Of a stretch of DNA of 64,000 nucleotides, positions 831 to 61,600 are shown one piece after another (positions within the stretch are counted from its first letter, which is position 1; each line of letters starts with the position of its first letter). The notes beneath the pieces were generated by a model that saw nothing but the letters and a program-made list of their open reading frames with translations, was not told the origin of the DNA and did not search any database. Origin of the DNA: Amoebophrya sp. A120 (lineage: Eukaryota > Protista > Dinoflagellata). Made by a program: the position numbers and the translations under genes. The stretch spans positions 3,319,320 to 3,383,319 of the forward strand of contig CAJINV010000004.1 in assembly GCA_905178155.1 (NCBI GenBank). Reading direction: 5' to 3'.

Positions 831-2334
831 TCACTTTCGGATTCGGTGTGCAGATGTTGTTTCAACTCCTCAGAGGTAATCGTCCCGTCGCTGACGTCGA
901 TTTTCAGATCCGCTGCCGCTTTCAGCAGAGCCTTGTCTTCGTCGAGGGTTTGCGCCGGTCCAAGGTGTAGTGCGTCTTTCTGCGCCCTGGTAAGACCATC
1001 GATGCCGATGTGCAACGCCTGGTTGGAGTCCAGGCCGTGCTGCTCCTCCTGCAAGGCGAGTAGTTCGTCCTGCACCTCCACCTCTATGGGAGTGTCAGGA
1101 TTGAAATCGACAAAGGCAATGCATAATATCGATACCAGTCAGAAGCCCAATTACAATTTTCAAGCGGTGCATGACAAATTTGGGCAGAGCCGAAATCCAG
1201 TCTGTCATGCTGTTTCGGCAAAGAAGACTGCTCCTGTCATGCTATTTTAGCACCTCAGTTGCTACCCCTCAACAGGCTTACAATGTGCCTCACTTGCCTA
1301 CTCTGCAAGACAGGCACTTTGTTTCTTTGTGGGCTGCATTATTTGCGTGACAAATCATTCCAACTTTGGCGATTTCAATCCTGACACATCCATACCATCG
1401 ATCTCATTGTCTTGGTTCTTATCAGCCATAAAGAAATCACCCGCCTTCCAGCTTCTGGGATGGGCCTTTCGCCATTCGTCTTCCTCGATGGGCAGTTTGC
1501 CGTCTCCGATGTGGGCATACCCATACTCCGCGCTCTTGTAGGTGTCCGAGGGGTAGGGCGGGCCTTTCGAACCGTCAAATGCGCCACTATCGCCCGTGTT
1601 CTCGGCCAGCCAATGCTCTTGGAATTTGTCCGCCAACTCGCGCGCTGCGTCCCTGTCGTTCTCAACATCGAGTGCCTTTTGCAGCTCCTCGCCGGTGATG
1701 CCATCGGCGAGTGTTTTTTCCAACTCCTTGGCGTCTTCAGGTCCATATGGAAGTGTCAGAATCGAAATTGACAAAATCGCAAAATTTGTAATGCACAAAA
1801 TCGATGTCAGTTGGAGCCTCAGTTTCCAAGTGGCGCATGACGAATTTCGGAAGCACCCAAATCCAGTCTGTCATGCTGTTTGGGCAAAGAAGACTCCCCC
1901 TGTCGTGCTACTCTGGCAGAACATTTTATACCCCTAAACAGGCTTGCAATCGGTCTCATTTGCCTGCTCCCCAATACAGGCCTTCAGTGACGTACATTTT
2001 ATGCATTTTTTCGACTTTGTCGATTTCGATCCTGACACATCCATAATCCATCCAAATTCAGTATCTCGGCCACCGCATCATGCAACGCCTCTGTCTCGTC
2101 CGCCGTTGGGGCCGCGTCTGCGCCTGCGGGTAACATGTTCAGCGCTGCATCATAGTACGCCAGGTTGTCTACATTTAGCAACCCGCCCAGGAGGTCGTCG
2201 ACACCACCGTCCTCTGCATGCAGAAGTGTAGTCTCCTTCTCGTTCTTTGTGACAACTTTTCGGGCAGTGGCGAAGCACGCGGCACCCGCGACACCGTGAA
2301 CCAGAATTCTACCTAGCACAGCGCCCATGATCAT
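791..2334 (-). CDS. EF-hand-like acidic protein, exons approx 2334-2046, 1745-1395, 1084-831; 3' end uncertain
   Basis: ORFs join in frame after introner removal (..NLDG|PEDAKE.., ..DKNQDNEID|(E)VEVQDELL..); EF-loop-like DKNQDNEIDEVE and DVSDGTITSEEL. Confidence 0.6.
1085..1394. mobile_element. Introner family A
   Basis: TIR tatgggagtgtcaggattgaaatcg / cgatttcaatcctgacacatccata; diverged TSD acctc/ccatc. Confidence 0.9.
1746..2045. mobile_element. Introner family A
   Basis: Family A TIRs; TSD gtcca/atcca. Confidence 0.9.
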
Positions 2335-2728
2335 TCGGTGGATAATTATTCGCTACACAATCATTAGGTACAGCCCGCCCTAAGTGGCGGTCGTCATTTT
2401 CTATCAACAGTAGAGACACTGTTTGATATGTTGCCGCCTATTTTGTTTTTTTGTTTTATCTCAGCATTTGTGACTGCACGATCCAGAAGCAAGTCGTACT
2501 TCAGGAGGATTTGGCTTGCAAGACGATTTCTCGCATTCTTCAACAAACCCCCACTTACAGTATCGCAACCCCTCGCCCTCCATAGCCCGTCCCATGCTAT
2601 CTAAACGTAAACCTCGGTGCACGACATGGAGGATTGCATCTCATATTACTCATCTTCGCTGTATAATTTCATGATCGAGAGAACTGCGAGCGAAGTCACG
2701 ACGAAAACAGTGTGTAGATCTAGATTTG

Positions 2729-3923: not shown

Positions 3924-4714
3924 TTATTTGGACATTTCCTCCAGCAAAGCCTCTTTTCGGTGCAGAACATGCTCGAACTTTTCGGCCATGCTCGCGGACC
4001 AAGCGTCCTCTGGTTCCACCTCCACCTCCTCATGTCGCCTAGCATTCTGACTGCTCTGACGTTGTACCAAATCAGAATTCGCCCCCGTCACCCCGTCTGG
4101 GCTGAAACTTTTTGCAGCTCGGTGGTACAACTCCAACACACGACTGCTCGACGTTGCGGGTGCAGCAGGAGCGCCACTTGTAGAAGAAGTTCTTCCTGCC
4201 GCTGTCTTGGAAGTCTTAAGTTTGTCCTTTCTGGTGTTACTTCTGCTTTTCGAAGAAGCCGAAGATGATGTTTTCGAAGCTGTTTTCTCTTCTTCATCTC
4301 CGCGGGAGTAGAGTTTTCTGCTCTGATGTTGTAGTGCGTTTGAGAACTCGTCGCGACTGGTCACATCCACTGCTTCGTCGTAGCCGGGTGGGATCGTGCT
4401 GGCGGAACCCGGTTTGTTGGTCGCACTGGTCGTTGGTGTCAGGCTATGCAAGAAAAAAACTGTGTAAGTGTAACTTTGTCTTGCAGATGTTGCAATACAG
4501 TTACACGCCTTGTCACGCCGCATATGCATCAGAGGCTATTTTAGTACGTGTTTTAGCGTACTAGCTACGCATGACAAGTTTTCTGTCATGCAAAACAAAT
4601 CTATGATGCTGCTCCTGCAAGAAAGTTACACTTACACAGTTTTTTTCTTCGATACAGTCGCTTTGGATGCTCGTACTTCCAGTCAGGAAGGGGCGCGGGC
4701 TGAACGAAAGACAT
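3924..4714 (-). CDS. Hypothetical Ser/Thr-rich protein, 2 exons
   Basis: MSFVQPAPLPDWKYEHPKRL joins TPTTSATNK.. in frame after removing 4445-4654 plus TSD. Confidence 0.6.
4445..4654. mobile_element. Introner family D
   Basis: TIR tatgcaagaaaaaaactgtgtaagtgtaacttt / aaagttacacttacacagttttttttcttcgata; TSD caggc/cagtc. Confidence 0.9.
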
Positions 4715-9400: not shown

Positions 9401-12400
9401 CCTGCTGCGCTTTCTCGAACACGGAATGCCGTTTGGACTATGAATTGCAAAAGTATCGTACTCGTATAAATGCATTACAAATTCCCTCAGCATGAGAAAT
9501 GAGATCATTTGTAAATGCGGACTTACCTTAAGAAAAGGATTTGCAATGCAAGACTTGCATTTATACGAGTGCGATACTTTTGCACAGGATATGGACACCA
9601 CGGCCTCCAGAATGTCCGCGGAGTCGGTGCGCCGCTGTATGGGAGCGTCAGGTTTGAAATCGTCAAAGTTGAAATAATTTGTAATGCATAAAATGCATGA
9701 CCCGAGGTACGTGTGTTGCAGAGCAGGCAAGTGAGGCCGATTGTAAAGCCTGTTTGGGGTTACAGCTCGAGCTGCTAAAGTAGGATGAGAAAATCACTCT
9801 TCGTTGCCTAAACAGCATGACAAACTGGATTTCGGGGCCACCGAAATTTGTCATGCGCCACTTGAAAACTGGGCTCCAACTGGCATCCATTTTATGCATT
9901 ACAAATTATTTCAACTTTGACGATTTCAAACCTGACGCTTCCATACGCTGGTGCCGTGTCGTAATCTTGAGCGCCGCTGCGCGCCGCTGCTCTTCGCTCT
10001 GTGTTCGCTGCTTGCTCTCCACAAAGCGACCCAGGGAGGCCTCCGGATCGTGGACAAACACCATGTTGTGGTGCTCCGGACCCGCCTCGTCGCGCAGGCT
10101 GCTCATCCACCCCATCAGGGTTTCTTGGTGGATTTTTCCTGCCGTCCCGTTTTACAGTGAAAAATGCCCCCACCCCCAAAGTTGCAATAATTTGTGATGC
10201 AAAGTTTCCAAGTGAAAACTTTTTGTCATGCATGAAAGGAGTGTGAATCTTTCTGATGCAGAGTCTGGGCGTATATCGCATCGCTTGCATGACAAGCGCC
10301 GCTTTTGCTAGGATCTTTTGCAATGCAAATTTTTGCTATTCACGATTGGAAATCTGTGATGCTGATAGATGCAAGAAGGCGAGTGTTTCCTTGTTTGGAA
10401 AGGTTTGCAATACAAATGCTCCCAAGTTCGGGGATCGTGGGGGCATTTTTCCTTGTAATATCCCGCCGATCTTCTTCCGGGCGCTGGTCCGCAGGGGGTT
10501 GTCGCCGAAGTACGTCTTCAACAACTGCTGCTGCTGGTTCTCCGTGATGCCCCGTTGCTTGCGCCGAAACATCTCGCGGACAAACGCCTGCCGTTGCGCC
10601 ACGGACATGTTGCGGTACTTTTGCACGGTGCTCCCGTACCCCCGCGACGGGTCGCCGTTCTCATCGCCCTTGTGGATTGCAAATATGTCTGGGTCCTCTG
10701 GAAGTCTGTGATGCTGAATTGAGCCTGATTGAAGCGCTTGCAATGGCAGCCAGGCATGACAAGCTTCAGAGACGCCTGCTGATGGTGCCTACCACGCATC
10801 ACAAATTGCGTTTTTGCATGCCCAAGCAAGCTCCTCTTTTGCTGCTCATGCAACACAGAATTTCCAGGAATGCAAGACACGCATCACAAGTTCCACTGTT
10901 CCAGACCCAGACACTTTTGCATTTGATAGCCGTCTTTCCCACGCAAGTGCTCCTCCAGCCGGTGGTTTTATCCTGTGCAAAAGTATCGCGCTCGCATTGC
11001 AATCATGCATTACAAATCTTTCTCTTGAGGTAAATCAGCATTACAAATTTGATTTCTCATGCCGAGGAAATTTGTAATGCATTTGTACGAGTACGATACT
11101 TTTGCAGTTCATAGGTTTTCCGCGTCCACAACCGGATCCGCGTGTCGCACCCGGTAGGGAGACTTGTCCTTTTCTCTACTCTTTGCACCACGACCGCCTT
11201 CTTGGGTATTACCCGCAAGAACCTTGTTCCGCTTCCTGGATCCGGGGCCGCCCGACCCGGCGCGGTACTGCATGGTTGGAAACGCACCGTACGCCGCGCC
11301 GCCGGGGCTGTTCCTGCTGGCGACCCCGACCGTCATGTCGTAGGCTGCCTCCGCGGGCACGCGGTAGGGCGACTGCCCGGCGGTGATATCAAATGCAAAT
11401 ATGTCTGGGTGTGGAAGAGTCATGCTGCTTTTGCATGACACAGAAGGTCTGGCATGGCAGCTCTAGCATCACAGGTTTCGAGAGGCTTTCGCTATTCCGA
11501 ATCCGCATCACAAATGCCCCATTTTGGTGACAGAAAGTGGGCAACTTTTGCTGCCTGTGCATGAGAGATTTTTCTGCGTTGTGGAATGCGCATCACAAGT
11601 TTGCACTCTTCCAGACCCAGACATATTTGCAATGGATAGGTGAATTCGTACCGCAAATCGCCCCACCCCGAGTGGTCGCCGCTGCGGGCCGTGGTTTATC
11701 CTGTGCAAAAGTATCGCACTCGTACTAATTGCAAATATGCATGACAAATATTCTTCCTAAGGTAAAACAGCATTACAAATCCCATTTCTCTTCGTGCCAA
11801 AAGCAAAATTTCTAATGCAATTTATACTAGTACGATACTTTTGCAATGCATATGGTTTTGCCGACGCCTACGTGCTTGCCGAGATTCTCCAGATCGTGAA
11901 AAAAGGGGCGGCTCCACGTGTGGCGCACCGGGTCCTGGGCGGTTTGCACGAAGGCACGGTGCCGGAAGAGCTTGTGGTCGTCGATCCACAAAAGCCGCGG
12001 GCCGCAGTACTGTGTTTATGTTGAACTTTAATTTTTTTATCCGCTTCACATTTTACGTACTATGAGGAAAACTTCAAAAAAATCGAAAAAGCTGCTATAT
12101 GTGAGTACAACTGCTGCAGCAAAGAAACAGATGAGCATGAGGCAATCACCTTCGTGTAAACTCTAAATACGTTTGCGATTTGGTTCCAGTAGTACGGCAG
12201 CGAGGTGATTTGCGGGTTGTTCTGGAGCAACAAGATCACCAAGTGGGTGTTATACGACAGCGGCCGCAATTGGCTGCAGCTCCTCAGCTTGTTGTTTCGC
12301 AAATCCAAGTACCGCAGCTCCACCAACGTCTCCAAATGCTCCACCTTTTCGATCTTGTTCGAATCCAGCCCCAGCTCCTCCAAGGCCTCACAGAGCAGCA

Positions 12401-33393: not shown

Positions 33394-34227
33394 GAGAGTT
33401 CGTTGCGCTCAACGTTCGTTGGTGGTCTTGAAAAACCTTTGAGTTACTCTTGCGCGCTTACCAACTTGTTCGCATCATAGCGCGGGACACGATGCAAAGG
33501 CAAATCGATTATACATGTAGAAGACAGATGCACGCCACGCCAAAACACCACGACAAGCAATAGAGGGACATCAAGTCTCCAAATTGCTTAAGCTTCTTCA
33601 AGAAAGAGCCTAGATGAAGGAGGCCACCGTTTACGACGTAGTCGACGGTCAAGGTCATGTTTTGCCTTAAATTTTTGACCTGGTATCGAGGAAAGCATCC
33701 AGAATTTATACACTTAGTGTCGATGTGGAAGTTGTAAAGTATCTCAGCACCTATCTGGCAAGGAGAGTAAGTACTTACAAAAGAATCTACGGGTCTTGGT
33801 CCGAATGACTTTCAGCACCTACTCAACTTCAAATTTTTCCATACGACGACAACGACGACACTGGTGGTGCTTGGCGATGTTGTTTTATGATGTACAACTT
33901 TATGCGAAGGTGAAAACGACGTCGAAGCAGGCGATTCGATTTTCATTTCCTTTCACGATGCAGCCAAAACGCGGACGAACAGCGACGGGCAGAAGTTGTT
34001 TACGATTTTGGAACTCAAAGAGCAAGTTATGACACAAGGTGTGCCCAGTAGGCATCGCAGCTCTGCCTCCTAACTTTGGCGCAACTATGTATAGAGAAAC
34101 AGAAACAGGAAATCTCTATTGTCCTACAGCGTTTCATATTTTCTTGCCCATCATGATAGATATGAATGTCAAAACCACTCATACTTCCCTTGGCTCGTAT
34201 AGCCCATAATTTGATGTTCTTACAACA

Positions 34228-35805: not shown

Positions 35806-35971
35806 AAAGGATTGCTCAAAATCAAACGAAGATAGAGTACAGTAGCTCTTTACACCAGCGATAGGGATAACGGTAGGTACGATACAGATCGAACAAGGTA
35901 CTAGGCTCTTGCTGGGTTCGAAATAAAAGATTATTTGAGAAAAACTTTACAATTTTTCCTTTCAAATACTA

Positions 35972-37240: not shown

Positions 37241-37726
37241 TAGGTTTGTGACCCTCCTCTAATAGCTTCGTCAACATCGCTGTCAGCGAGTAAATATCCG
37301 CCTGAGAAGATCTTCAGCATCAAGGAAAAAACTGAAAGAACGGAAGTGCGAATGCTGGCAGGGTTGATCTAGTAGCAAACTACCCGCAAAGCGTCTGCTC
37401 GAGAGGACCGCTGAGGGGCAGTTACAAAGTGATGACCTGAAGGTTCTTTCTGCGGATCCACCTCCTACGTCTGGAATTGAGTACGCAAGAAAGCAACACA
37501 ACATCTAGATTTTGGAGCAGGTGCTATGATATATCATGATCTTGAACATCAACGATGGAACCATAGGTCGTGCTGAACACCTTCAAATCACGCACGCTGT
37601 CCCGCGATTCAGTTCATTCAAAAATATGAGTAAAAATTATCCACCTGTCAAGTGGCTGTCTTACAACGCGTCACAACTTGTTCACACTCTATCTGTTGTT
37701 GCAGCCGGCACCACACAGGTTTTTTA

Positions 37727-40700: not shown

Positions 40701-41949
40701 CGATATCCATTGCAACTATGTCTAATTCTGGAAGCTTGCAAAACTTATCTATGCAGTTTTTCCACGCTCCACAGAGTCTGGAATGCAAGCCTGCGCATCA
40801 CAGGTTCTGCACTTTCTTGGTCGTTGTACACGTAATGCCTATTCTCCATGCGAAATTCCCTCTCAACAGCATGGCGAGAAGTGCAAGTGGGCATTATTGT
40901 ATTTACAAGTTGTCACGCATGCCAGATTTTTGTGTGACCCGCACCGCGCATCACAAGTTCGTTCTTTTTCGGAGGACCCAAGAAACATATTTGCAGTGCA
41001 TACCCGGCTCCACTCGGCGAAGCGGTAGCGGTAGACCCAAATCTCGCTCGTGGACGGGGAAGTGAGGGCCATCGTGTCCTCCCCGTGAAAAGCCAGCCGG
41101 CTGACCCCGACGGTAGTCGCCTTGCTTGAGAACACGCGTAGTGGCTTATTGAAAGGAAAAATCCCCCCTCCCCATATCAAGACGAAGTTTCTCATGCTGG
41201 ATTTCCGTACATAAATGCGCGCTGTCTTGCAGTAAGGCATCGCCGCCTGATCCTCAGCCTATGTAGGGGCGTTTGGGTCTACGTCTAGTTGTTTAGCATT
41301 AGAAACGGCTGTCCCCTAGGCCCAACAGCATGCCACATGGCTTCCATAATTAATGGCGCGGAGGCCTCTGCACTTGTCCTCTGGCAAGACAGAAGTTGTT
41401 TGTGGTCTCAAATCAGCAACACAAATTTTCGGAAGCATACCTTTTCGATGTGGGGAGGAGGGATTTTTGCTCTCAATACGGCTCTATGCATTGCAAAAGT
41501 ATCGTACTCGTATAAATGCATTACAAATTTCCTCAGCATGAGAGATAAAATTTGTAATGCGGATTTACCTTAAGATAAAGATTTGTAATGCATGACTGCA
41601 ATACGAGTACGATACTTTTGCACAGGATAGGCTCCACCGCACAGACCAGCTCTTCGAGTTCTCCGAGGTATCAAGTGTAAAAATGTCTGGGTCTGGAAGA
41701 ATCCAACTTGTCATGCTGATTTTGGATTCTAAAAAAATCTGTATTGCATGAGCAGCAAAGGGAGTCCAAGTTTTGCTACACGGGAAGAGCATTTGTCATG
41801 CAGTACAGGCATCAGGAAGCCCTCACAAAATCTGTGATGCGAGGGCATGCGTCACAGTTATCAGGAGTCATGCAAAATGTGCATGACAAACCTGGCAATC
41901 TTCCAGACCCAGACATTTTTGCATTTGATACGAGGTGCTGCTGGCTCAT
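37727..41949 (-). CDS. ARPC1: ARPC1 (Arp2/3 p41 subunit)-like WD40 protein with 6 introners
   Basis: Rejoined SPSTSEIWVY..LKEHADVVAD..LVSCGHDRCAYVW..YQPELV..RWSPDASRFAV..PFG..SWV..QDSSI..PLSCVAF..ACGFDYVP..H..FATCGLDGKVLQWD follows the ARPC1 motif order as I recall it. Confidence 0.7.
39927..40083. mobile_element. Introner family B
   Basis: Family B TIRs; TSD acccg. Confidence 0.92.
40380..40653. mobile_element. Introner family C-like (diverged)
   Basis: tatccaatgcaaacacgtctgggtctgg..ccaaatccacacatatttgcactgcata; TSD actgg/actcg. Confidence 0.85.
40704..41002. mobile_element. Introner family C-like (diverged)
   Basis: tatccattgcaactatgtc..acatatttgcagtgcata; TSD accga/cccgg. Confidence 0.83.
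41147..41478. mobile_element. Introner family F
   Basis: TIR tattgaaaggaaaaatcccccctcccca / tggggaggagggatttttgctctcaata; TSD tggct/cggct. Confidence 0.9.
41485..41629. mobile_element. Introner family B
   Basis: Family B TIRs; TSD ggctc. Confidence 0.92.
41669..41930. mobile_element. Introner family C
   Basis: Family C TIRs; TSD cgagg. Confidence 0.92.
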
Positions 41950-42877
41950 CTTGTTTCATCTTCGCGATCAAAAAAAACGCGGCTCAAACAAAATTTGCGC
42001 TATCAGGTTCTGAAACTATCACTGTGAATGTACTATCACACCGCGCGTGCATGCGCATGCCGTACAAGCAAAATAAACTGCAGAAACTGGTGCATAGAAG
42101 AATAAAAGCAGTGGCCCCTGTATCTTCATCACTCTTAATACCGGATTACAAAATTACAACTTACAACTTCGGGTTCTTCGTTGTTTGTGTCAGGTACAAC
42201 TACGTGCTTTAGGACTAAATTTTGCGTTGTACTGAAGTAGAAGTTTGAAGATCCGTAGAAGGCAAGAAACGCTCTTTGTGAAGAAAAGCTGCGGCTTTGC
42301 TTTCGGGTTGAGAGCACGGAGGACTGTGTGGAATGACGCTTGGTGAACACAAGTGCTGCTGGCGTTACGTCGTTTTTCAGCATCTCTTTCTTCTTCGTCT
42401 GTGACTGCAGTTCTTGAAATCGCTGCGCGTCTTTCTGGTGCTGTTTGCGCACTAGTAAAGCGAACTCACTTGCCACTGCTGCAGAGGCCTCACCTTCTGG
42501 ACACGCCTATTAGTATTTGCAACGCCAGTATGTTTTTGTCTCTGACGGACTAGTAGGATGGTTTTGTTCCTAATTTGCGACGTCAGTCGTGTTTTTATAA
42601 ACATTTTTGCTTCAAGCTTGATTTCCACAAGGTTTAGCCGAAGCCGGGCATACTTGGCACTTCCTGCTTGTTGCCTAGCGCACTTTGAAGGAGGAAGTCT
42701 TCGTTTCATCATCTTCGGCTGCTGGTCTTCCTCGCATCAATTGCAAAAGCGGGCGCCGTCTAGTTTCAACACAAAAATGCGCTCGTCCTCGTGCTTATGT
42801 ATGATCAGGCGCAGTAGTACTTACCCATACGGACGCCATCGTCGTGTGAACGAAAGGAGGCCCTCGTTACCCTACTT

Positions 42878-46578: not shown

Positions 46579-49151
46579 TTATATCACGCTTGTTTCTGGC
46601 TTGCCGCGTGCCTCATCCAATTTTCCTGAGTGCAGGATTTCCCGTTGATGTAGTACGCGGACTTCTCCACGTCGCGCACGGTCACTTTGCCCACACCGTG
46701 CGGAACGCCCTGCGCCCACTGTCCCGAGTACTGCTTGTTTTCGCGGGTCCTGTTGGATTCTCATTTCAGTTTCATCCTATTGATGTACTTCTACTTCCTC
46801 TACTTCCTAGATTTTCATTTCAATCCTGCAGCATAGAGATAGGCCAAGCTGAGAGTTGTATTTAAGTAACAATCGTTAAGTATTTCTTCAGCACTTGGAG
46901 GCTCCATCAAAACTACAAATTTTACCACGAGAGCGTCCCTTCACCGTGGCGCAGCGAGTCCACAAACTGCCCGACGTAGAAGTTATCCAGGAAAAAAACT
47001 GTGTAAGTGTAACTGTGTAGCGAGAATAGCATCACAAATTCGCTTTGCATTGCAGGGAAGACCTGACATGCGCAGCTAGTACGTGGAAACACGTGTGAGT
47101 GTAGCCTATGAAGCAGACCCAGCATGACAAGTGTAACAGTTTCGCACTTTCTGCATCACAGACTTACACTCACATAGTTTTTTTCTTGCATAGAAGTCCC
47201 CGTTGGAATACTGCCACTTCCCCTGCCCGTGCTGGGTATGAATTGCAAAAGTATCGTAGTCGTATAAATGCATTACGAATTTCATCTCCAGCATGAGAAA
47301 TAAAATTTGTAATGCGGATTTACCTTTAGAAAAAGATTTGTAATGCATGATTGCAATTACTACGAGTACGATGCTTTTGCACAGGATACTGGGCGTTGTC
47401 CAGGAATTCCCCCACATACACGCCCTCATCGTCCGTGAGCCGGCCGTGGCCGCAAATCACGTTGTCCCGCAGCTGGCCCTCGTAACTGCTATCCAAGTAG
47501 AAAGAAGGGATGTAAGTGCATAGACACTTTATTTTTCGACCAACATTCCAGCTCTGAGTGCAAAAACCTCTCATGCTCAGACAGTATGTGAGAACGCCTT
47601 TGAATCATGGGTTTATATACTTATTGGGGCCTACAAAAATGCATGACCAGCATGAGAGACCTCCAGACGAAGCCATCTTGCATTTTGATTTTGCTGCGCA
47701 TCTTGAAGTTACAGTAACAATCTTTTTCCTTGGATAACTGCTATCCAAGAAAAAAACATTGTAGGTGCAACTTTTTTGGAGGAACAGCATTACAAATTCG
47801 TCTGGCATGACAGCAAAAACCTGTCATGCGCAGATAGCACGCGAAAACGCCCTTTAGTGGACGCTGCGATGCATGCTAAGCATGACAGACGCAATCATCT
47901 TGCATGTTGCGCATCACAAATTTACACCAACAATCTTCTTCCTTGGATAACTGCTCCCATCCGACCACTGGTACACGCCGTCGCCCTGCTTCATATGGAA
48001 CTGTCAGGATTGGAATCGCTAAAGTTGAAATAATTTGTGATGCCTAAAATGCAAGGCGCAGAGTGACTGTCTTGCAGGGATTGCAAGTGAGGCCGATTGT
48101 GAGCAGCGTGTTTCGGGTTTGGGATAGAGCTGCTAAAGTAGCATGACAAAGGACGCCTTCTTTCGCTAAACAGCATGACAAACTGGAGTTCCATGACGTC
48201 AAAATTTGTCATGCGCCGCTGGAAAATTGGGCTTCCAACTGGTATCGTTTTATAGATATACAAATTTTTCAACTTTGTCAATTTCAATCCTGAAAGTTCC
48301 ATACTTCACCCCCTTGACATAGTTACCCTTGAAAACGGTCTCGTCGTCGAACCATGTTTCGCAACCTGTCGTGCAGCAGTTTTTCAACATGCTCAATAGA
48401 AGTTGTACGAAGAACCATGCACTCCCTCACAAATTAAATGCAATCTACTCTCTCAACATGTCATCATAGATTGATACATGTTCGTTGTGTTCGTCGCCGT
48501 CCTCATGCCCTTGGGCGTAAATTATGATTAAAAAAATTATGACAAAAAAATATAGCGATACGAATGAGAACTTGTTCTACCGAGCCCGTGCTTCTCGCCC
48601 GCCAGCCAGTTTCCCTTGTACTCCCCCGCCGTGTCCTTGAACCAACCGAGACCGTGCGCTCGGTTTTCCTCCCACTCTCCCTCGTAAAAGCCTGCGGGGT
48701 CCACGTACGTGTACTTGCCCCATCCGCTTTTGAAGTTCCCGCTCATCTGCCTGATCGTTGGTTTTCATTCACGATGGCAGTGCTCTGTTTTTTCTATTTG
48801 CATAGTTCTTATCATGTCATGCATTTATTTACTCAGCAACTACAGAACCGTCAGGAGTACTTCTATACTCATTACTCAAGCACGAATATCAGGATCATGT
48901 GAATGACGACCGCACTAGTACCCTTCATAAGAGGTCCCGTTCGGATTGGCCCGGGCCACATGGTTGTTGACCTGTTTGGCCTTGACCCTGTCGCCGTACT
49001 GTGCTCGTTTTGTGTCGTAATCCTCTTGGAGCTGCTTGACCTTGACCGCAATTTGGTCGACCCGATCGAGGCTGTCTTCCAGCGCGCGCTCGTCGTTCAA
49101 GATCTCATTGCTTTTGTCGCACACCGCCTGGCAGCACGCCGAGTTTCCCAT
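46579..49151 (-). CDS. MORN-repeat protein with N-terminal acylation-like motif; 3' end approximate
   Basis: MGNSACCQAVC start; repeats such as YEGEWEENRAHGLG, YKGNWLAGEKHGLG, YQWSDGSS|YEGQLRDNVICGHG, YVGQFVDSLRHGEG. Confidence 0.85.
46984..47192. mobile_element. Introner family D
   Basis: Family D TIRs; TSD gaagt. Confidence 0.92.
47237..47388. mobile_element. Introner family B
   Basis: Family B TIRs; TSD ctggg. Confidence 0.92.
47490..47736. mobile_element. Introner family D-like, first of a tandem pair
   Basis: tatccaag..cttggata; TSD actgc. Confidence 0.88.
47742..47949. mobile_element. Introner family D, second of a tandem pair
   Basis: tatccaagaaaaaaacattgtaggtgcaa..caatcttcttccttggata; TSD actgc. 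Confidence 0.88.
47994..48303. mobile_element. Introner family A (reverse orientation)
   Basis: Family A TIRs; TSD cttca. Confidence 0.92.
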
Positions 49152-50336: not shown

Positions 50337-53300
50337 TCAAACTTCATGCCTGCAGGTCGGACACACTTTGTTTACCCGAAGCCACTGGTCCACGCAGTGC
50401 GTGTGGAAAAAGTGCAAACAGGGCAACGTCCGCACCTCCACGCACTCCGGCGCTTCGCCCGTCTCCAAGTCTGGCTCGAAGTATATGCACTGCAAAACCA
50501 AAAGCATCGTACTCGTATTGCAATCATGCATTACAATCCCTTTTCTTAGGGTAAATCCGCATTAGAAATCTCAGCTCTCATGCTGAGGAAATTTGTAATG
50601 CATATTTATACGAGTGCGATACTTTTGCAGTGCATAAAGTAGCCCTCCAGGCAAATCCGACACGTCCTATCGTCTTCGGCGAGGTTGTCGTATCAACTGC
50701 AAAAATGTCTGGGTCTGGGAGATTGCGAGATTTGTCATGCTAGTCTGGCATGATTCGAGAATCTGTATTGCACAAGCACGAAAGAGCCCTCTTAACTGTC
50801 ATGCGAAAAAACAGTTTGCCATGCGGAATACATAAGACATGGCAGCCACAAAATTTGTCATGCGTAACTGCGTATTGCGCCGCGTCTATCATTCACTTGT
50901 AGCATTACAAGTCTCCCGACCCAGACATATTTGCAATGCATATGTCGGTTGCGCGAACCATTCTCCGCGGCAACGCCGTGATCTCCTCGTGCGTGGCTTC
51001 CTTCGCCTTCGTCTCCTCGTGCTCCTGGATTGCAGAAAGGAGCGCGTATCCTTTGTAAAAACGTCCCCACCCCAGAGATGTCATGCAGATTTGCAATGAC
51101 AGGAACGCTTGTAATGCGCATCGCCACGAGGGGCATTTCTAGTCGTGTTTTGGCATTTGTAATGCTGTAAATAGGATAAGCAGATGGATTCCTGATGCCG
51201 CTGGCCTTGCTAACCTGCACAACGGTACGGACTGCAACTTGTCATGCGTGGCTCCCAAAACTTCTGGATTTGTGTTGCTAAGTTCCCAACTTGACTCTGG
51301 TGTGGGGACGTTTTTACTCAGGATAGCGCGTGTAAGGGGATCAGGCGGGGCTGGCCGCGGGACGAGGTAGAAGTACTACTAGAGGCTGATGATGACCACG
51401 CGCCACCACGAGCACCGGGATCATGATCGGCATGACCAGTGGAGCCACTACTGCTACCGGCACCACCAGTGGACGACGTCGTGTCGACATGACCTCCCGA
51501 CGAAGTCGATGACGCACCGTCCATCCCCGGAATCGAGCGCAGCTCCACCATGGGGCCCCGGATCTTCTGCATTTCCCGAGGGTCGATCGGCTCCCCGGCC
51601 TCGGGGATAGAGTGGATCACGTGTCGCCGCTCATAGGGGTTGGTCGGGACCATCTGCCCACAGACGCACAGAACCAGCTCCGTTTCCGCCTTTTTGTAGC
51701 GCAGGGTCTGCTTGCAGGCGAAACACGTGACAAACCGGGAGTTCTTTTTGTTCATCAATGCTATCATGTCTGCCTGCGAAAAATCATCTATCCCAGGAAA
51801 AAACTGTTACAGTTACACATTTGTAGTCAGTTCAGCAACACAAATTTCTCTGCATGAGAGAGAAAACTTGTAATGCAGAAATCCTACGGGAAAACACCTA
51901 TGAAACGAGGCCTCTATGCGTATCCGGCATGACAGAGTTGGTCTGTCTTGCTTTGGCCTGCAACACAATGTGTTACTGTAACACTTTTTTCTTGCGATAT
52001 CATCGTCGTCGTGCCGACTGAGGTACTCCACCATGTCATCCTGAGGAAACACTTAGTACCCACCCCAAAGCTGTGATGCGAATTTGCATGCTAATGTATG
52101 ATGTTTCTGTATGCGGCTCCTCATGGGAGGCGTAGTTTTCTATCAAGCTCGTGGCGTTCTTTGGGAATCTGTCAACATGCTCAACCTCAATCATCATTCG
52201 CCTTTGTTCCTACAAAGGCGTCGACTGGACTTGCAAGCTGTTTTTCTAACAGCTGTCCGCGCTTGTTTGCCTGCTTTCCACCAACGCACCCCGTTGGCGG
52301 TGCTTGTGCGTGCTTGTTGCAGTTCCCCGCTAGCTTACGCTACTACCTGATTGGAATTTGTGAAGCGCCCCAAGGAGCAGACTCAATGTCTGTGCTACAG
52401 CGAGTTGTTGGTCACTAGCTTCTTATCATGAGGAGCCTTAATGCCGATCGTGGGGAACGAGGAGGAGCGTGCAGGTGTGTGAACATGTCACCTGGTGATG
52501 ATCCTAACCAGCCGAGATCTTTCCGGCCGCCATGTTGAACTTCGAGTGGAGACCTGCGGCAATGATCTCGCGTGAGAACCTAAGACCTTGTGATCAGAGA
52601 TTGATCTTCTGCTGGTTGTAACAACCAATCCAAGACCCGGCAAGCAGAACTAGAGCGGCGGATCTGGGAGCTTTTCCCTTGATCTATCGTGATCTCGTCA
52701 GATCATCTTCAAAGCAAAGCAAGTGGAAATCTAAGCGATTTCTACAAACAGAAACAGCCATACGTGACCCGTTTGACAAAGTTGCCCCGACCCAACTTCT
52801 GCCAGCTTCTGCTGCAGCCTAAGCTCTGGCTGCAACTTGTGCTGCGTTTTCCGGAGTTGCGTGCAGCTACCGCTGCAGCAACATCTGCCGACTGCAACAC
52901 CCTGGAGGTCGCTGCTGCGCCACCATATTTGTGTTGCTACTTCTACTTTCATGTCTCGCACTCGCTACAACATACGTCATCGACGAATGTTGTGCGAGGG
53001 GACTTTTGCCCTTTCCAGCGCCATGCGCTGTTCTGGCACTCCAAGTGCGGCATAGCCACACAGGGAGGCGACTACAGCCCTGAGTATGGGTGGCTCGTCC
53101 GCTGCTCTAGTGCAAAGACATATACGGGGGGAAGGGGGCTAGTAGTTCTTACCTTTCCCGCTGGGGGAATGGTTGGGCTCATAACTCTGTGGACGTCTCA
53201 AGCGTCAGGGACTGGGCATGCTCACTAGCATGCTGTCCGAAGATAGAGAACAGAGTTACTATCTAGGCACCTACCTAGTAGGTACTACGGAGAGAAAGGG

Positions 53301-54547
53301 CTCTTGATTCATTCCAGCTACTGGCCCGTAGACCAGAAGCCATTCTGGCACTGTTGTGTGTACGTTGTTACCATTGGTATGATTATCATCATCACCATCC
53401 TAGTGGTGTACTGTCCTGTGTGACCCATGTGGTCCTAGTGATCCTACTCGTGTGACCCCTCTAGGCTATTGCTAGATCTTCTACCTATCGGTGTACTTTG
53501 ATCCTACATCTCTGATCTCATTGATCTCAGGAGCATGCTGGCAACTGCTCTAGTCCGAGACAGGTTGCTGCGCAATAAACCTACTGGCGTTCTTTGGGAA
53601 TCTGTCAACATGCGCGAATCACCACAACAGCGCAGATTGGAGGTGATGCGTCCGGACAACTAGCAGGGCCCGACTACTTACACTGCACAGCGAAATTTGT
53701 CATGCGTGAATCGTCACTTGTCTTGCAGTTCTCTTCCCATCTCGACTTTGGGGTAGTGGGAAGGACGTAGTAGTTTTTACACAGGATACATCGCCTGCGT
53801 TTGCTGTTCCTTGTACTTGTTCGACCGTAGATTGCGCAAGGCCTGCAGCTGTTCTTTCGCTTTGTCTCCGGATGAGGTCGCACCTGGTGCGCCATTTATA
53901 GAGGTGGTCGGACTGTTGTTTCCATTCAAAATCTCTGCCAACACCTGGTCTTGCTTCTTTTTCAGCAAGGTGCCCTCAAAAAACGTGCATGATGCAGAAC
54001 CGAGATAATTCCTATCTGGCTGCTGCTTCGTCAAGCACCTTTGCAGGTACTGGAGGTCCTTTTCTGCCTCCGCTTTCCCCCGCAGCCAGACGCAGGTGTC
54101 ATTTTCCTTCAGCGTGAACCCCAGCAGGTGGAGCAGGGCTTCCAATTTTTTCGATCTTCTCGTCATCATATCGCTGGAGTTCTCGTCCGAAGGAGAAGCA
54201 GCGGGAGCAAGATCTCTATTTGATGTTTGGCGCTCCTGGCGGTCGTGCAACATGATCTGCAACGCGCTAGAATCTTCATTTTTCTGCTCCTCGTAGATCT
54301 CCTCCTGTAAAAACAACAGCGGCTCCAACTTCTGCTGCAGAGTGGCGTTGCCTGGCCGCAGCCGGCGAAACTTGTCGTTGTTGGGGTCACGCACCACGTT
54401 GGAGAGCAGTTTCTGTACCGTTTCTAAGGCGATGAGCGCTGCGATGAGAGGAGTAGAGGTTGTACTTACAGGGGATGAATTTCTTTTGCTTATGTCCTGT
54501 TCAGCAAGGACACAACTTCGGGCCAACCGGTCCACCAATGCCTGCAT
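50337..54547 (-). CDS. PUB-domain + zinc-ribbon + RING-H2 protein (putative p97-associated E3 ligase), 6 exons
   Basis: PUB-like [37 protein letters not shown]; CFACKQ..CVCGQ; RING-H2 CRICLEGY|[27 protein letters not shown]; ..TQAM|VEYLSR.. joins across 52037-53788. Confidence 0.75.
50484..50636. mobile_element. Introner family B
   Basis: Family B TIRs; TSD aagta. Confidence 0.92.
50691..50942. mobile_element. Introner family C
   Basis: Family C TIRs; TSD tgtcg. Confidence 0.92.
51047..51325. mobile_element. Introner family E
   Basis: TIR tatcctttgtaaaaacgtccccaccccagag / ctctggtgtggggacgtttttactcaggata; TSD gcgcg. Confidence 0.92.
51789..51999. mobile_element. Introner family D
   Basis: tatcccaggaaaaaactgttacagt..actgtaacactttttt cttgcgata; TSD tcatc. 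Confidence 0.92.
52037..53788. mobile_element. Expanded, diverged family E introner carrying a 1.4-kb nested insertion
   Basis: Ends catcctgaggaaac..cccaccccaaag and ctttggggtagtggg..tttttacacaggata; TSD catgt/catcg; 29-bp direct repeat at 52152-52180 and 53585-53613. Confidence 0.75.
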
Positions 54548-55610: not shown

Positions 55611-58600
55611 TCACTTCGCCCCGGTCTGAATGATTTGACACAGCTCGCCGATATTGTTTGCCTTGATCGCCTGGCGACAGGCCTGCACGTATCAAAATGA
55701 AAAATCCCCCTCCCCATATCAAAACGAAATTTCCGATGCTGGATTTGTGTACACGACAAATGCGTTTTGTATTGCAGGAAGGCATTGCGGCCAGATACTC
55801 AGCCTAGGTAGAGGCGTCTCGGTCTAGCTGTTCAGAATGGCAAACGGCAACGGCTCCCCTTTAGGCCCAACAGCATGACAAATCGCTTCCATCATGGGGC
55901 GGAAGCTTCTGCCCTTGTCATCTTGCAAAAAAAATGTGATTTCTGACCTCAAATCAGCAGCACAAACTTTCGGAAACATCCCTTTTCAATATGGGGAGGG
56001 GGAGATTTTCCTTTCCATAGCACGGTGCGGGACTTGGCGGAGCCGCACCGAAGCCGCCCGGCGTTCTGCAGTGCTTGATTCACCTTTTTCAAATGGGACA
56101 GAAGCTCTTGGTAGTTCCCCGCGCGCTTTGTGTGTTCCGCAATCATGTCCCCATTGGTGTTCTGCAGCACCTGGTACGCCCGTCGCAGGTTCTTCATGTC
56201 CGCCAGAATGCGGTAGTCCTCCGCCTTCACTACCAACGCCTTTACCAGGTTCTATGGAATGCAAATATCCCTGGATGTCTGGAAGGTTGCAACTTGTGAA
56301 GCTGTCCTTGGAAGCTAAAAAAATCTGTATTGCTTGACCAGCAAGAGGAGTTCAGTTTGTGCTAAGCGGAGTGGGCATTTCTCATGCGGAGTACGCATCA
56401 GAAGGCCCCTTAAAAATCTGTGATGCTAGGGCATGCATCACAGGCATCAGGAGTCATGCAAAATATGCACGACAAACCTGGCAATCCCAATCTTCCAGAC
56501 CCAGATATAGGTATTTGCAATCCATAGGTTCGAAGAGTCCGCAATTTCCGCCGTCAGTTTCAGCCGCGTGGCGTTGTATCAAGAGGAAGAATCCGCCCTC
56601 CCCATATTGAAACGGAAATTTCTGTTGCTGCATTTGTGTACACAAATCAGCTCTGTATTGCAGTGAGGCACTGCAGGCAAAGCCTAAGCCTGCTTAGAGG
56701 TGTTTTGGTGTAGGTGCTTAGCATTGCAGAGGCCTGCCATGTAGGCGCAGCAGCATTACAAATCGCCTGCATAGAAAGGCGGATTCTTTGGATTTGCCCC
56801 CCTGCAAGAGAGACAGGATTTGTGGTCTCAAATCAGCATCACAATTTTTTAGATAAAGCATACTCTTTCAGTATGGGGAGGAGGGATTTTTCCTCACAAT
56901 ACGTTGTGGCCCTCGACTTGCTTCAAAATCCTGGTGTATCCTGTGCAAAAGTATCGTACTCGTATTGCAATCATGCATTACAAATCCTTCTGTTTAGGTA
57001 AATCCGCATTACAAATTTTATTTCTCATGCTGAGGAAATTTGTAATGCATTTATACGAGTACGATACTTTTGCAGTTCATATGGTGAGCTCCTCCAGTTC
57101 CGAGGGAAAGTGCGCCGCAGCATCCAGCTCCTTCACCTGATTTAGTTTTAGATTTTCATTTTGAACATATTCATAATAATCTGCGACGCATAAAGTGCCA
57201 GGTGCAAAGTGCCTGTCTTCCTTGCAGAGCAGGTCAGTGAGGGCGATTATATATACGCCTGTTCGGGGTTAGAGATATTAGAGCTGCTACAGTAGCATGA
57301 CAAAAGATGTGCTCTTTGCAAAACAGCATGACATCAAACTGGATCGATGGAGGCGCCACTAAAATTCGTCATGCTCCAGTTAGGAATTGGCCTACCACCT
57401 GGATCTTGGCGTCGATTTTCTGCATCACAAATTATTTTAAGTATGTCGATTCTGACACTGACGCTTCCATATCATAACGATAGCCATAGCCTGTAGTACC
57501 TGTAAATGCTGCGTGAGGTCCTCTATAATCTCGGCCGCCAATATCCCACGAAAAAGTGTTACAGTTACACATGTGTTGTCAATTCAGCAACACAAATCTT
57601 CTCTGCATGAGAGGGAGAACTTGCAATGCACAGACCATAAGGCAAAACACAGATGAAATGAAGCTCGGATGCAGTTCTGGCATGCCAGAGGTTGTCTATC
57701 ATGCTGGGCTTGCAACGCAATGTGTAACTGTAACACTTTTTTCTCGTGATAGCCAACTCCAGGTCGTCGGTGCAGGCGACGAACTGGAGCTCGTGTCCTT
57801 AGTAAAAAAGTCCCCACCCCACAGTCAAGTTGCAAACTCTGCAACACAAATCCGGGAGTTTTGGCAGCCATGCATGACAAGTTCGTCTTTGTAGTGTAGT
57901 GCAGGTATTACGAATTCCAAAACAGGATTGGAAATCTTCAATGCTTCTCATGTAGATGCGCATTTAGAAATGTTCCTGTCATTGCAAATCTGCATGACAA
58001 CTCTGGTGTGGGGACGTTTTTGCTCAGGATAGCTCGTTGCGGTTGTTCGGGCTGTCGGAGGTTTCCAGCAAGAGCGCCGTTTGCTTCCGTAGGGAAACAA
58101 ACTGGCACTGCAGGTGCGCGTTGGAGTTGCTCGGGTTCGGGTTCTATCCTGTGCAGAAGTACTATCGTACTCGTAGTAATTGCAGTTATGCATTACAAAT
58201 CTTTTTCCTAAGGTCAATCAGCATTACCAATTCCATTTCTCATGCTGAGGAAATTTGTATTGCGATTTATACTAGTACGATACTTTTGCAGTTCATAGGT
58301 TCTTTGCGTTGATAAAATTCTTTGCGAGCCATTGCCAGATGCGGCTCGCGGTTATCCAGGAAAAAAACTGCGTGAGTGTAAGTTTCTTGGAGGAATAGCA
58401 TCACAAGCTTGCTCTGCATGACACAGAAAACCTGTCATGCGCAGCTAGAACGTGAAAACACGTACGAAAGTTGCTTCTGATGCATGTCCAGCATGACAGG
58501 TGTAACAGTTTTGCATTTTCTGCAACACAAAGTTACACTAACACAGTTTTTTTCTTGGATAGCAGTGACGGGAAGAACAATCTTCACGTTGCCGGCGGGC

Positions 58601-61600
58601 CGGCGTAGCTTCCCCTCGGTGACGAAGTGAAACATGGAGAACTATCCTGTGCAAAAACGAGTGGTCCTCACCAAACTGCTAATAGCTGTCATGCAAAATA
58701 ATTTTATCTGCATGCTTGAAATGTCTCTCTTCATGCGGAGCCCGATGTTGTTGACGCGCAATTTCTAGTGCTGTTTTGAAATTCGCGATGCTCGAATCTT
58801 CAGCATGAGAAGCTAGTAGATCTGTGACGCTGCTGCACTAGCTCAACGCGATTGAGTACAACATTCCGAACCCAAACTTGATGTCAGGCGCAAGAGCAGC
58901 CAAAGCTCCCTGTTGATTTGATTTGCAGATAATTTCCAACTTGACACCTATGGGGTGGGCAAGTAGTTTTTGCACAGGATAAGAACTTGGGCAGCATCAC
59001 CGTCTGCTCAAAGGTGTGGTACTGCTCTGACGTGGCGGACACGCCACAGTAGCAGTGGATCTTCATGTGGATTTCCGCGTTCTTGGTCGCACTGATGGAA
59101 ACGGAGTTTTCGTTTTTCGCGGGCGCGAAGTGCGTCAACTGCGCCTCCTGGTCCTCAAAGAGGTGTTCCGCGTAGATCACGCACCCGCGGATCACGCTGT
59201 AGTTGTTCGTGGCTAAGCGAAGCCGCATATCGTATGTAAAAACGTTCCCACCCCAGAGTCACGATGGTGATTTTATTGCTACACAAATCAACAAGTTTTG
59301 GCTGTTTCGCATGACAAGTTTAGACTCGTAGCGTAGTGCTGTTTGAGGTAGTGCAGCCGCATGACAAATGGACTACCTTATCCTGATTCCAGCATCACAA
59401 ACTTCCAGATTGATAGCATGAGAAAATGTCTCTCATGGGGCTGCGCATAAGAAAAATTTTAGTAGGTAAGTATGCCATTTTGCAATACAACTCTGGGGTG
59501 GGGACGTTTTTACACAGGATACCGCAGCCCGTCGGGGCTGGTTTCCAAACTGACCTGCAGCTTGGTGTCCGTGGGGATCAGACCCGCGCGCCCCCCGGAC
59601 TCCTTCATCTGACGGATCTGCTCCTGAGATATGCAATACAAATTTCCCGTACATGTACAAGATGCATCACACCACTTTGGGGTGTAAAACTTGTCATGCT
59701 AAACTAGGAAAGAAGACAAGTTCTGCCAAGCAGAGACCGCATTTGTACGTGAACGGGAAATTTACTGTGGATATGAGAATCGAGAATACAATTTGTAGAG
59801 TTAAAGCTTTTGGTATCACTAAGAATGATCTTGCAGGATCATAAGAAAAACAAATTCAGAATAGATTTTGCAGCGATGTAGACCACGAGAGTTGACGAGA
59901 GAAGCGAAATCAAAAACAAACCACAGAAGAGCAAAAAAGAAACAGATACGTCGAAGCTTTTCAGCTCGTTCTGCAGGTCTTGTCTTTCCGCGAGCATCGC
60001 ACGATACGCCTCGTTGTCCTCCTCGGTTTTCGTGTCTGCCGTCACGAGACCCATGTTTTTCTCCGCTTTTTTCTTTTTTTCCATCGATTTGGCCGCCGCG
60101 GACGAGGCACTGGCCCCGCTGGCCGCGGCCTGCTGCTGCTCCGCTAGAAACCCGTGCACCTCGCCGGTATTCGTGATCGCGATGATGTTTGGCATGCCGT
60201 CGTTTCGGTACCTGCCGATCACCAGTGAGGACATGTTGTTCGCCGCCAGCGTCTCCTTGAACAGGATTTCGCCCGTCATCTGGTTTCGGACCTCCACCTT
60301 CCCGGTCGACCACCCTATCACAACGTGCCGAATCCCGCCCGAGGCGCCCTCCAGCAGCTTCAGCCCCCGGACCTCGTTCTTCGCCGCCACCCGCCAGAGC
60401 CTCTGCGCCCAGTTCCCGCCCGCCTGAGACATGGCCAGACTGGAGCTGGAGGCCGAGGATCCGCCCTGGACCATTTTGTAGACGCCGACAGTGCCGTTTT
60501 TCAAGGCATAGGCGAACATGGTGGAGGAGATGCACTCGAGGTGGGTGACAATGTCCACCTCGGTTAGGGGGCTGCCCACGGAGGAGCAGGAACCTGGTTT
60601 AGAAGTTGATGTATCAATCTTGAAGGATCTTGTTTTACGCAGATTGAGAATCCTTTGCAAGTCTACACTAAACTCGGCAATCTATGATCGCTCATTTGTG
60701 AATCGAATCTCGTCCTCCGGGAGCTGTGCAGTGCTGAAGAAGCTAATGCTCATCTACATCAACATCTTGTAATCCGATGCATGACAACGATTTTCATGTA
60801 GTTCTCTGTACCTCCCCGTAGCGAAAACGCTGCGAGCTCGTTGTCCTCCGTGGCGACGAGCGTATGAGAAGGAACAACTCCGCCTGATACTCCCTAGAGG
60901 CATCTAGTTTCACAAGAAGCGAATCAAAGAAAAAAGCGCATACGCGTTCGCGTCGGGTCACTGCATAGCTCGACATCCGATCTACATAATTTGCACTTGC
61001 ACTTCCTTGTGCCATAATGAGAAACGCGAATGAGGATCAGTACATCTAGTTGTACAACTAGATCACACTCATAAAGAAAATCCGCGATGCAATCCGGTCC
61101 TTCTGCGAAGGCCACCGCCGACACCGTGTCGCCGACCACGGACCAGAACAGCTCTGACCCCTCCTGATCGAACCCCTGGACGCTGCAGTGCCCGCCGACG
61201 AGGCACACGGGGCCAAACGGCTCGCGCCGCCCGAACCGGAGACGGGTGCAACCATCGTATCCTGTGCAAAAGTATCGCACTCGTAGTAATCGCAATTACG
61301 CATGACAAATCGCCTTCCTAAGCTAAAACAGCATGACACATTCCGTTTGTCATGCTAAGGATCTTTGTAATGCAATTTCTACTAGTACGATACTTTTGCA
61401 TTTCATACGTCGGTAACTTCCTTCATGAACAGCTCAGAATTGTCCTCGATGTCGTACCTGGTGTTGAAAAGCGAGCGAGAGAATGTTTGTCATGCAAAAA
61501 TGAAATGGCACGCCCAAGCTCTCATGCATGACAACCAACATCAAATCGTTTTGGGCTAGAAACAATAAAACAAGCCTTAGTAAACTAGTATACGCCATGA

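Follow-up and report, generated by a model that had tools for sequence, protein, structure and literature searches.

The window, by which we mean the whole 64,000-nucleotide stretch of Amoebophrya sp. A120 DNA that was analysed, contains 55 TAT...ATA elements with 5-bp target site duplications (TSDs) in minus-strand genes. Judging by sequence, these elements are the published introners of this organism. Their end profile has T, A and T at 0.96–0.98 and A at positions 11–13 at 0.84–0.95. The two TSD copies are alike at all five positions in 43 elements, at four in 7 and at three in 5; with the right flank moved by 8–39 bases, the chance match is 0.2%, 1.8% and 8.9%, respectively. The 12 diverged pairs given in an earlier note on this DNA are the imperfect pairs among the 55, and every one was recovered, base for base and in place, on the minus strand. 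Their 17 mismatches are distributed over positions 1 to 5 as 2, 5, 4, 2 and 4. Those at position 5 are G/T, T/C, G/T and G/A (upstream/downstream copy), and the reported count of three with G upstream is correct. DNA-like contigs of run X5 cover elements 40380, 40704 and 43039 uncut and with no differing letters, so the mismatches there are not lone assembly errors; X5 is possibly the source of the window itself and is not independent. The mismatches at 4445, 41147, 58353 and 61258 are synonymous, and protein sequences therefore cannot tell which copy is used. The WD40 gene and the diverged elements read in DNA are as follows.

37730..41955, minus strand: WD40 gene carrying six elements, of which three have diverged TSDs (open frame, P0001, P0004)
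1085..1394, minus strand: diverged-TSD element, GATGG/GAGGT; predicted mRNA GATG joined to T (DNA only)
1746..2045, minus strand: diverged-TSD element, TGGAT/TGGAC (DNA only)
4445..4654, minus strand: diverged-TSD element, GACTG/GCCTG (DNA only)
10671..10928, minus strand: diverged-TSD element, ACGGC/AGGGC (DNA only)
52037..53788, minus strand: 1752-bp element inside a PUB-domain gene, diverged TSD CGATG/ACATG (DNA)
58353..58561, minus strand: diverged-TSD element, ACTGC/ACCGC (DNA only)
61258..61407, minus strand: diverged-TSD element, CGACG/CGATG, mismatch at position 4 (DNA only)

Removal of the elements gives the WD40 gene a 909-codon open frame. The relative P0004 aligns across the double element of this gene, while the N-terminus of P0001 extends into an element and RNA and relative give another start. 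One exon of the window matches, at 100% identity, a protein that the database assigns to A120. A protein search with the correct frame of the gene at 794–2352, which holds elements 1085 and 1746, returned no match, nor did a Pfam search with the longest ORF within the 1752-bp element. Further candidate old elements lie at 26656–26970 and 9170–9394.

Cut positions read from spliced contigs

The RNA evidence consists of assembled contigs from one sample, labelled 'RNA?', and minor forms drop out of such contigs; just 40 and 5 reads of the raw RNA runs X8 and X9 matched. The contigs skip a canonical GT-AG intron; this identifies them as spliced and establishes the strand. Removals of non-canonical elements make up 7 of the 8 joints in the contig table. 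We describe each cut by k, the number of bases kept from the upstream TSD copy; at register 4 (k=4) the intron begins 1 nt ahead of TAT and ends 4 nt past ATA.

32679..32842, minus strand: canonical GT-AG intron, absent from the same contigs (joint 32677>32842, CT..AC on the plus strand)
32363..32619, minus strand: intron at register 4, element 32367-32618, TSD CACAC/CAGCC (contig joint)
33302..33591, minus strand: old intron outside the 12 pairs, element 33306-33590 (TAA...ATA), flanks AAGCT/TCTTC (contig joint)
40376..40654, minus strand: intron at register 4, element 40380-40653, CGAGT/CCAGT (contig joint, P0001)
40700..41003, minus strand: intron at register 4, element 40704-41002, CCGGG/TCGGT (contig joint, P0001)
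41143..41479, minus strand: intron at register 4, element 41147-41478, AGCCG/AGCCA (contig joint)
43035..43211, minus strand: intron at register 4, element 43039-43210, CTAAG/CCGAG (X1 contig piece end)

The earlier note had predicted register 4, with bases 1–4 of each junction in cDNA from the upstream copy and base 5 from the downstream copy. Five of its 12 junctions were readable; the prediction fits all five, and register 4 is the only one they share. The joint of element 32367 (32361>32619, three of four runs) has 1 letter that fits both sides and gives k=4–5. That of element 40380 (40373>40653, four of four runs) gives a k of at least 2, with residue E of P0001 at the junction. At element 40704 (40699>41004, four of four runs) k is 1–4, the P0001 residue is F, and the RNA carries the hybrid CCGG joined to T, which is absent from both DNA copies. 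At element 41147 (41142>41630, four of four runs) base 5 is the downstream A and k is at most 4. The RNA thus uses the downstream base at both position-5 mismatches read in the window. For element 43039, the X1 contig piece ends at 43033, an end taken as a left-aligned joint rather than a listed one, which gives a k of at least 3. The spliced contig sizes of 2616 (X1, across element 43039) and 893 equal those of the models.

The old intron at 33302–33591 fixes the predicted register exactly. Its flanks are alike at 0 of 5 positions, with no TSD remaining, and its joint (33301>33592, three of four runs) has 0 letters that fit both sides, giving k=4: the donor cut precedes TAA by exactly 1 nt and the acceptor cut follows ATA by exactly 4 nt. 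Thus, one register fits six informative junctions and is exact at one only; k may still differ between sites or in minor forms. With k uniform over 0–5 at each site, the joint fit to k=4 by chance is 0.06 for the five listed junctions and 0.01 with the sixth. Contig joints also show exactly one TSD removed at the perfect-TSD elements 32972 and 39927. Intron ends at register 4 among the read joints include CT-GC, TT-TT, TT-AG and GT-GG. A +3 nt model (intron N-TAT...ATA-N), drawn from the NT-AN pattern of Table S4 of the genome paper (PMC7789003), was ruled out by the joints and contig sizes. The register is not derivable from DNA alone.

Two pairs of elements lie close enough for the rule to be applied to what stands between them.

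41480..41480, minus strand: putative exon of 1 nt (C), flanked by elements 41485-41629 and 41147-41478 (skip size)
47486..47950, minus strand: two elements, 47490-47736 and 47742-47949, sharing one middle TSD copy (sequence)

The first pair is separated by 6 bp. A single intron with register 4 at both outer ends would skip 488 nt and the observed skip is 487, which under the register 4 rule points to a 1-nt exon at 41480; one intron with a shifted donor may be the alternative. For the second pair, register 4 leaves zero exon bases between the elements, and the contig size fits lossless removal only after one modelled canonical acceptor is moved by 4 nt.

Element ends, donor base and cutting machine

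To enlarge the sample we used 295 elements of the same families taken from another assembly (144 loci, 252 kb in all), which have no flanking sequence in common with the window, so that mutations are not polarisable by orthologues. The caller required at least 3 TSD matches, recovered 54 of the 55 window elements with no extras, and misses fully decayed elements; a TSD-blind caller, which took internal repeats as ends and recovered 42 of 55, was replaced. Median nearest-copy identity is 0.84–0.87. One end motif was found at 144 loci, and the end TATCCTG stands at the 5' side in 87 elements and at the 3' side in 63. Element ends pair at positions 1–3 and 8–14 in 257–290 of the 295, with positions 4–7 mostly unpaired. 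At register 4, GT-AG ends occur in 4 of 295; among 220 perfect pairs, AG stands at TSD positions 3–4 in 21 and G at base 5 in 68. Neither G at +1 nor AG at the intron end is enriched. When the nine top A120 non-canonical motifs of Table S4 are laid on 350 elements, 20.6% agree at k=4, 8.9% at k=1, less than 4% at k=2–3 and none at either k=0 or k=5.

A fixed register and the lack of strong drift toward GT are very likely to hold together. We consider it probable, overall, that the fixed cut is measured from the element ends, with a spliceosome predicted to disregard the first intron base and the AG; for the spliceosome as the cutting machine, taken by itself, the case is evenly balanced. The TAT...ATA elements are missing from the spliced contigs, each along with exactly one TSD's worth of sequence, and the cut distance is likely measured from the end motifs. 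Since 1+4 equals the 5-bp TSD, the message that preceded any insertion is recovered whichever way the element points, and there would consequently be little selection toward GT. N-U-A-U would act like a canonical GUA donor, with U at +2 and A at +3; the donors of all five canonical introns examined start GTA (one read joint, four modelled from contig sizes). The 3' cut would be placed by distance from ATA at −7 to −5 or by the terminal stem, and each element would be removed on its own. For these three steps together, too, we see an even chance. The predicted fold of intron 33302–33591 leaves its two ends unpaired, which argues against an obligatory hairpin; in that of the 40704 intron the ends are paired, with a z of only −1.2.

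It is nearly as plausible as not that the rule reads neither terminal dinucleotide and reflects a new machine convergent with Euglena, be it a spliceosome lacking U1 or a distinct nuclease. The same reading, held with just under even confidence, has any insertion yield a scarless intron and 1-nt exons left behind. Exons of 1 nt are difficult for a spliceosome to handle. This favours a rival explanation, in which a non-spliceosomal endonuclease and ligase measure the same register from paired element ends, as proposed in Euglena, where fixed 3- and 5-nt spacers adjoin a paired motif (PMC12501133). The pairing of positions 1–3 and 8–14, the lack of preference for GT or AG and the report that U1 was not found in A120 (PMC7789003) agree with such an enzyme. 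[quoted passage not shown] We regard the endonuclease as a tentative possibility.

The earlier note had also proposed that a GT donor is favoured, so that the first intron base drifts to G because such donors splice better. Besides its 3 of 4 position-5 mismatches, G stands upstream in 7 of the 12 diverged window pairs, biased donor conversion has been reported in Symbiodinium, and repeats are published as present in 15% of A120 canonical introns. However, the window excess is within chance (p=0.11 for 3 of 4; 7/12 diverged vs 13/43 perfect, Fisher p=0.075 one-sided, 0.096 two-sided), and the larger sample gave no support: of 15 position-5 mismatches, 5 have G in the upstream copy and 4 have it in the downstream copy, where a true rate of 75% would yield 5 or fewer with p=0.0008. 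The clue of G before TAT that lay behind the register prediction therefore failed. Pooled, position-5 G is 8 vs 4 (p=0.19). The excess of G looked for at position 5 of the 295 elements was not found (27/75 diverged vs 68/220 perfect, p=0.25), and there is no age trend (33/98, 29/99 and 33/98 by age class); over 350 elements G at +1 is 33%, against 29–31% in flanks. The oldest intron tested (33302–33591) begins with T. In the closest relative the residue at 40704 is I, and F occurs in 0 of 73 aligned homologues; the upstream G (Val) may therefore be the ancestral state. Drift to G is thus unlikely, although very old elements may show a weak one. For AG, the drift count is 5 downstream and 6 upstream in 75 diverged pairs, and AG ends number 12, 9 and 5 from the oldest to the youngest third. 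Two canonical introns that start GTAT (32842, 43629) were considered as converted introners and rejected, their 3/5 flank match being ordinary splice consensus. The null result means that TAT...ATA introns are not visibly becoming canonical.

It is more doubtful still that the register differs between sites within the TSD, with k=4 merely the common overlap. Five of the six junctions do allow a range of k, a published figure legend calls the sites variable or their border unknown (PMC7789003), and of the 15 position-5 mismatches in the other assembly 12 affect a third codon position (p=0.008, uncorrected for five positions), as would be expected if both copies served at times as coding sequence. 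Against this stand the chance fit of 0.01, the agreement of the Table S4 motifs with k=4, the downstream base in RNA at both position-5 mismatches read in the window, and the placement of 3 of the 4 window position-5 mismatches outside third positions. In-frame stops from three mismatches in the other assembly fit k=4 in two cases and conflict in one (L039, strand margin 0.4).

Direct repeats with a hairpin are the classic setting of reverse-transcription false introns and the data are assembled cDNA-like contigs, but template jumping is very improbable, as the 33302–33591 joint lacks a direct repeat, removal restores long frames matching relatives over the joints, and in 3–4 of 4 runs the main contig is the joined one.

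Meaning and comparison with known systems

The genome paper states as open how the majority of its introns, which are non-canonical, are removed, apparently without U1, and leaves their borders undefined (PMC7789003). A fixed rule N-TAT...ATA-NNNN would define precisely where tens of thousands of introns are spliced, correct gene models such as the P0001 N-terminus, point to where a branch point or nuclease site should be sought, and explain why insertions are tolerated whatever the target sequence and the orientation. If the reading in which neither dinucleotide is used is true, every insertion would be a scarless intron.

A120 introners are described as inverted repeats with a TAT start and an A run about seven bases on, 3–5 nt direct repeats and non-canonical ends (Farhat et al. 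2021, PMC7789003). The window elements share the TAT inverted repeats and A run, carry border direct repeats (43 of 55 perfect at 5 bp, 12 of 55 with 3–4 matches), form repeated families and likewise leave RNA with non-canonical ends. They differ in having one fixed 1/4 register, whereas the Fig. 3 legend gives splice sites as variable relative to the hairpin, with the border unknown; a hint of such a register may already be contained in the legend of Fig. S23 ('1-5'). T at +2 in all nine Table S4 motifs is what this register predicts. U1 snRNA was not detected in A120 (PMC7789003).

The nonconventional introns of Euglena (Nomura et al. 2025, PMC12501133) likewise lack GT-AG, have a proposed MITE origin where ours are also transposon-derived, and are cut by fixed spacers from paired end motifs. 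Those spacers are 3 and 5(-6) nt at CAG/CTG, whereas in Amoebophrya spacers of 1 and 4 nt at TAT/ATA fit six of six informative junctions. The Euglena CDG/CH'G motif, at +4 and 5–6 nt from the end, is absent here, where +2 to +4 is TAT and the 3' motif is ATA. Euglena also requires a purine after the cut, unlike the Amoebophrya rule, and its code was tested by knock-in, while ours is known from contigs and sequence.

Introners of Micromonas, Aureococcus, Symbiodinium and Polarella have inverted repeats and a TSD overlapping the splice sites, as here, but need G(T/C/A) and AG from the TSD or element (PMC11282704; bioRxiv 10.1101/2020.10.14.339549). The Amoebophrya elements need no TSD sequence: with GT-AG in 4 of 295, those of the window and the other assembly do not have the GT donor and AG acceptor of a U2 intron, and they are not confined, as in the Micromonas, Aureococcus and Polarella type, to sites where the TSD gives a splice dinucleotide. 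Mass transposon-derived introns without GT-AG also occur in Fritillaria borealis, with an altered spliceosome; there the ends are mostly AG-AC or AG-AT (PMC13326754, PMC11282704), whereas here both terminal bases are free and come from the target site.

Elements and their direct repeats

The window carries 55 elements that begin with TAT and end with ATA, each flanked by 5-bp direct repeats (target-site duplications, TSDs) and mostly 109–339 bp long, with a single outlier of 1752 bp. The repeats are perfect in 43 of the 55 pairs and differ in 12, while a 5/5 match is expected by chance in 0.2% of cases, as determined from shifted-flank controls. Read on the minus strand, the differing pairs are identical, letter for letter, to the 12 diverged pairs in an earlier note, confirming that observation. 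Long minus-strand frames open once each element is taken out together with one repeat, including a 909-codon frame across six elements at 37730-41955. All 55 elements, within 794-62314, are compatible with reading frames on the minus strand, so the genes form an extended cluster with a single direction, an arrangement described for this genus. Additional features outside the main size class or the 12 pairs are:

52037-53788: 1752-bp element, far longer than the others
26656-26970 and 9170-9394: candidates for older, decayed elements, outside the 12 pairs

The 1752-bp element is perhaps a nested insertion; a ~29-bp direct repeat near 52155 and 53585 was read off its sequence, a contig from run X1 lies inside it at 52177-52554, and its longest ORF has no match in Pfam.

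The last exon of gene 37730-41955 matches, with 100% identity, a protein that carries the label Amoebophrya sp. A120. Introners of A120 were described as inverted repeats with a TAT start, an A run at the end and 3-5 nt direct repeats (Farhat et al. 2021, PMC7789003), and because our elements match these, they are already known. In the same paper, U1 snRNA was undetected in A120, and according to the Fig. 3 legend the splice sites vary in their placement with respect to the hairpin and the position of the border is unknown; the text portions available to us, figures aside, do not give the exact cut. A literature search, with most subscription journals outside its coverage, found no later work fixing it. 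The introner system is known and a fixed cut is a refinement, one that makes the open question of the removal mechanism testable.

For a larger sample, a scan for a single end motif yielded 144 loci of another assembly (L001-L144) with 295 distinct elements, 220 with perfect and 75 with diverged pairs. The element caller finds 54/55 window elements, and strand assignment by a coding model is correct for 54/55 when each gene is left out in turn.

Cut position in contigs

Contigs labelled 'RNA?' from four runs of one sample (X1-X4) were compared with 31900-41668, giving 8 joints. One is a canonical GT-AG intron, which demonstrates splicing in these contigs and places the gene on the minus strand. 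For each junction we determined k, which counts how many TSD bases of the upstream copy are retained (elements named by start coordinate):

32367, minus strand: k=4-5 allowed, joint in 3/4 runs
40380, minus strand: k>=2 allowed, joint in 4/4 runs
40704, minus strand: k=1-4 allowed, hybrid CCGG/T, joint in 4/4 runs
41147, minus strand: k<=4 allowed, joint in 4/4 runs
43039, minus strand: k>=3, contig piece end at 43033, taken as a left-aligned joint

The earlier note had placed the cut 1 nt before TAT and 4 nt after ATA (k=4). This is the sole value compatible with all five of its junctions that were read (5/12), and the position is supported. Another of the 8 joints, outside that list, 33301>33592 (3/4 runs), has zero letters compatible with both sides and belongs to:

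33306-33590: old element, ends TAA...ATA, flanks 0/5 alike

Its cut, AAGC/T-TAA...ATA-TCTT/C, falls exactly at k=4 despite the dissimilar flanks; thus an intact TSD is not required. The intron starts with T, and 12/18 terminal bases are complementary by hand count. With k uniform per site, the probability of such a fit is 0.06 for five junctions and 0.01 for six. One register is compatible with six junctions in contigs of one sample, and the first intron base (+1) and the four final ones are free.

Elements are removed without gain or loss. Two perfect-TSD elements lose exactly one TSD copy in the contigs, and contig sizes of 2616 and 893 equal the model sizes; a size of 1810 agrees only once one modelled canonical acceptor is shifted 4 nt. 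In P0001, the database protein of gene 37730-41955 and possibly based on the same RNA, the residues at 40380 (E) and 40704 (F) correspond to k=2-4. The top nine A120 non-canonical motifs in Table S4 (PMC7789003), GT-AC, CT-AG, AT-AG, GT-CG, GT-AA, CT-AC, AT-AT, AT-AC and TT-AG, all have T at +2. Among 350 elements their summed share is 20.6% at k=4, 8.9% at k=1, 3.7% at k=2 and 2.3% at k=3, with none at k=0 or k=5, although these motifs depend on that paper's own pipeline for placing ambiguous borders.

Two results from the other assembly speak against k=4. One of three stop-making mismatches conflicts, in an element of uncertain strand, and position-5 mismatches in L001-L144 fall at third codon positions in 12/15 cases (p=0.008, uncorrected), an excess not expected of an intron base that is free to vary. 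Separately, the third codon position coincides with TSD base 1 in 28/55 window elements and 96/208 in L001-L144, so about half of the introns are phase 0 at k=4; an A/T preference at the TSD centre may be the source.

Elements 41485 and 41147 are separated by 6 bp (41479-41484) with overlapping TSDs. The RNA skips 487 bases here, while a single intron with k=4 at both outer ends would be 488. Should k=4 apply to both elements separately, the single C at 41480 would be a 1-nt exon and the two would be removed successively. A relative, P0004, shows 57% identity in the N-terminal portion and agrees with this frame through the site, and annotated P0001 is mis-started, its start lying inside the element there. 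At 47737-47741, GCAGT occurs three times and its middle copy is shared by two elements, marking a second insertion into one target, with zero exon bases between the elements at k=4.

Proposed donor drift toward GT

The proposed drift toward a GT donor is not supported. The G-upstream excess in the window is within chance (p=0.08-0.11), and among the 295 elements position-5 mismatches carry G upstream in 5/15 and downstream in 4/15 (2/9 each in the 208 elements of confident strand); a 75% G-upstream rate is rejected (p=0.0008, 15 mismatches). TSD divergence tracks age, since nearest-copy identity is 0.844 for diverged versus 0.870 for perfect pairs (p=0.007), and G at +1 is similar in diverged (27/75) and perfect (68/220) pairs (p=0.25) and flat over age thirds. 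At 40704, F occurs in 0/73 aligned homologues and I in the closest, which makes G, the base of the upstream copy, possibly the older one. Young families are over-represented in this sample and fully decayed elements escape it, so weak late drift may still occur.

Removal mechanism

Both element orientations are in use (87 vs 63). At k=4 all element donors read N-U-A-U-(C/G), and canonical donors begin GTA in 5/5 examined; thus +2 and +3 are common to both. Element 33306-33590 keeps these bases and the terminal ATA while its predicted fold leaves the ends unpaired. For these reasons we favor an altered spliceosome, at about an even chance, over a Euglena-like nuclease. Freed of the need for G+1 and AG, the spliceosome would measure the cut from the element end motifs.

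That a separate nuclease makes the cuts is somewhat less probable, at roughly one chance in three. The 1-nt exon implied at 41480 speaks for it, as does end pairing conserved at positions 1-3 and 8-14 (complementary in 257-290/295 elements). Positions 4-7 are complementary in just 65-151/295 in L001-L144, a conserved pattern of short stem, internal loop and long stem. In Euglena, cut spacers are likewise fixed around a paired motif (PMC12501133). For the altered spliceosome we favor, PMC13326754 provides the counterpart: in tunicates, the spliceosome is able to change in such a way.
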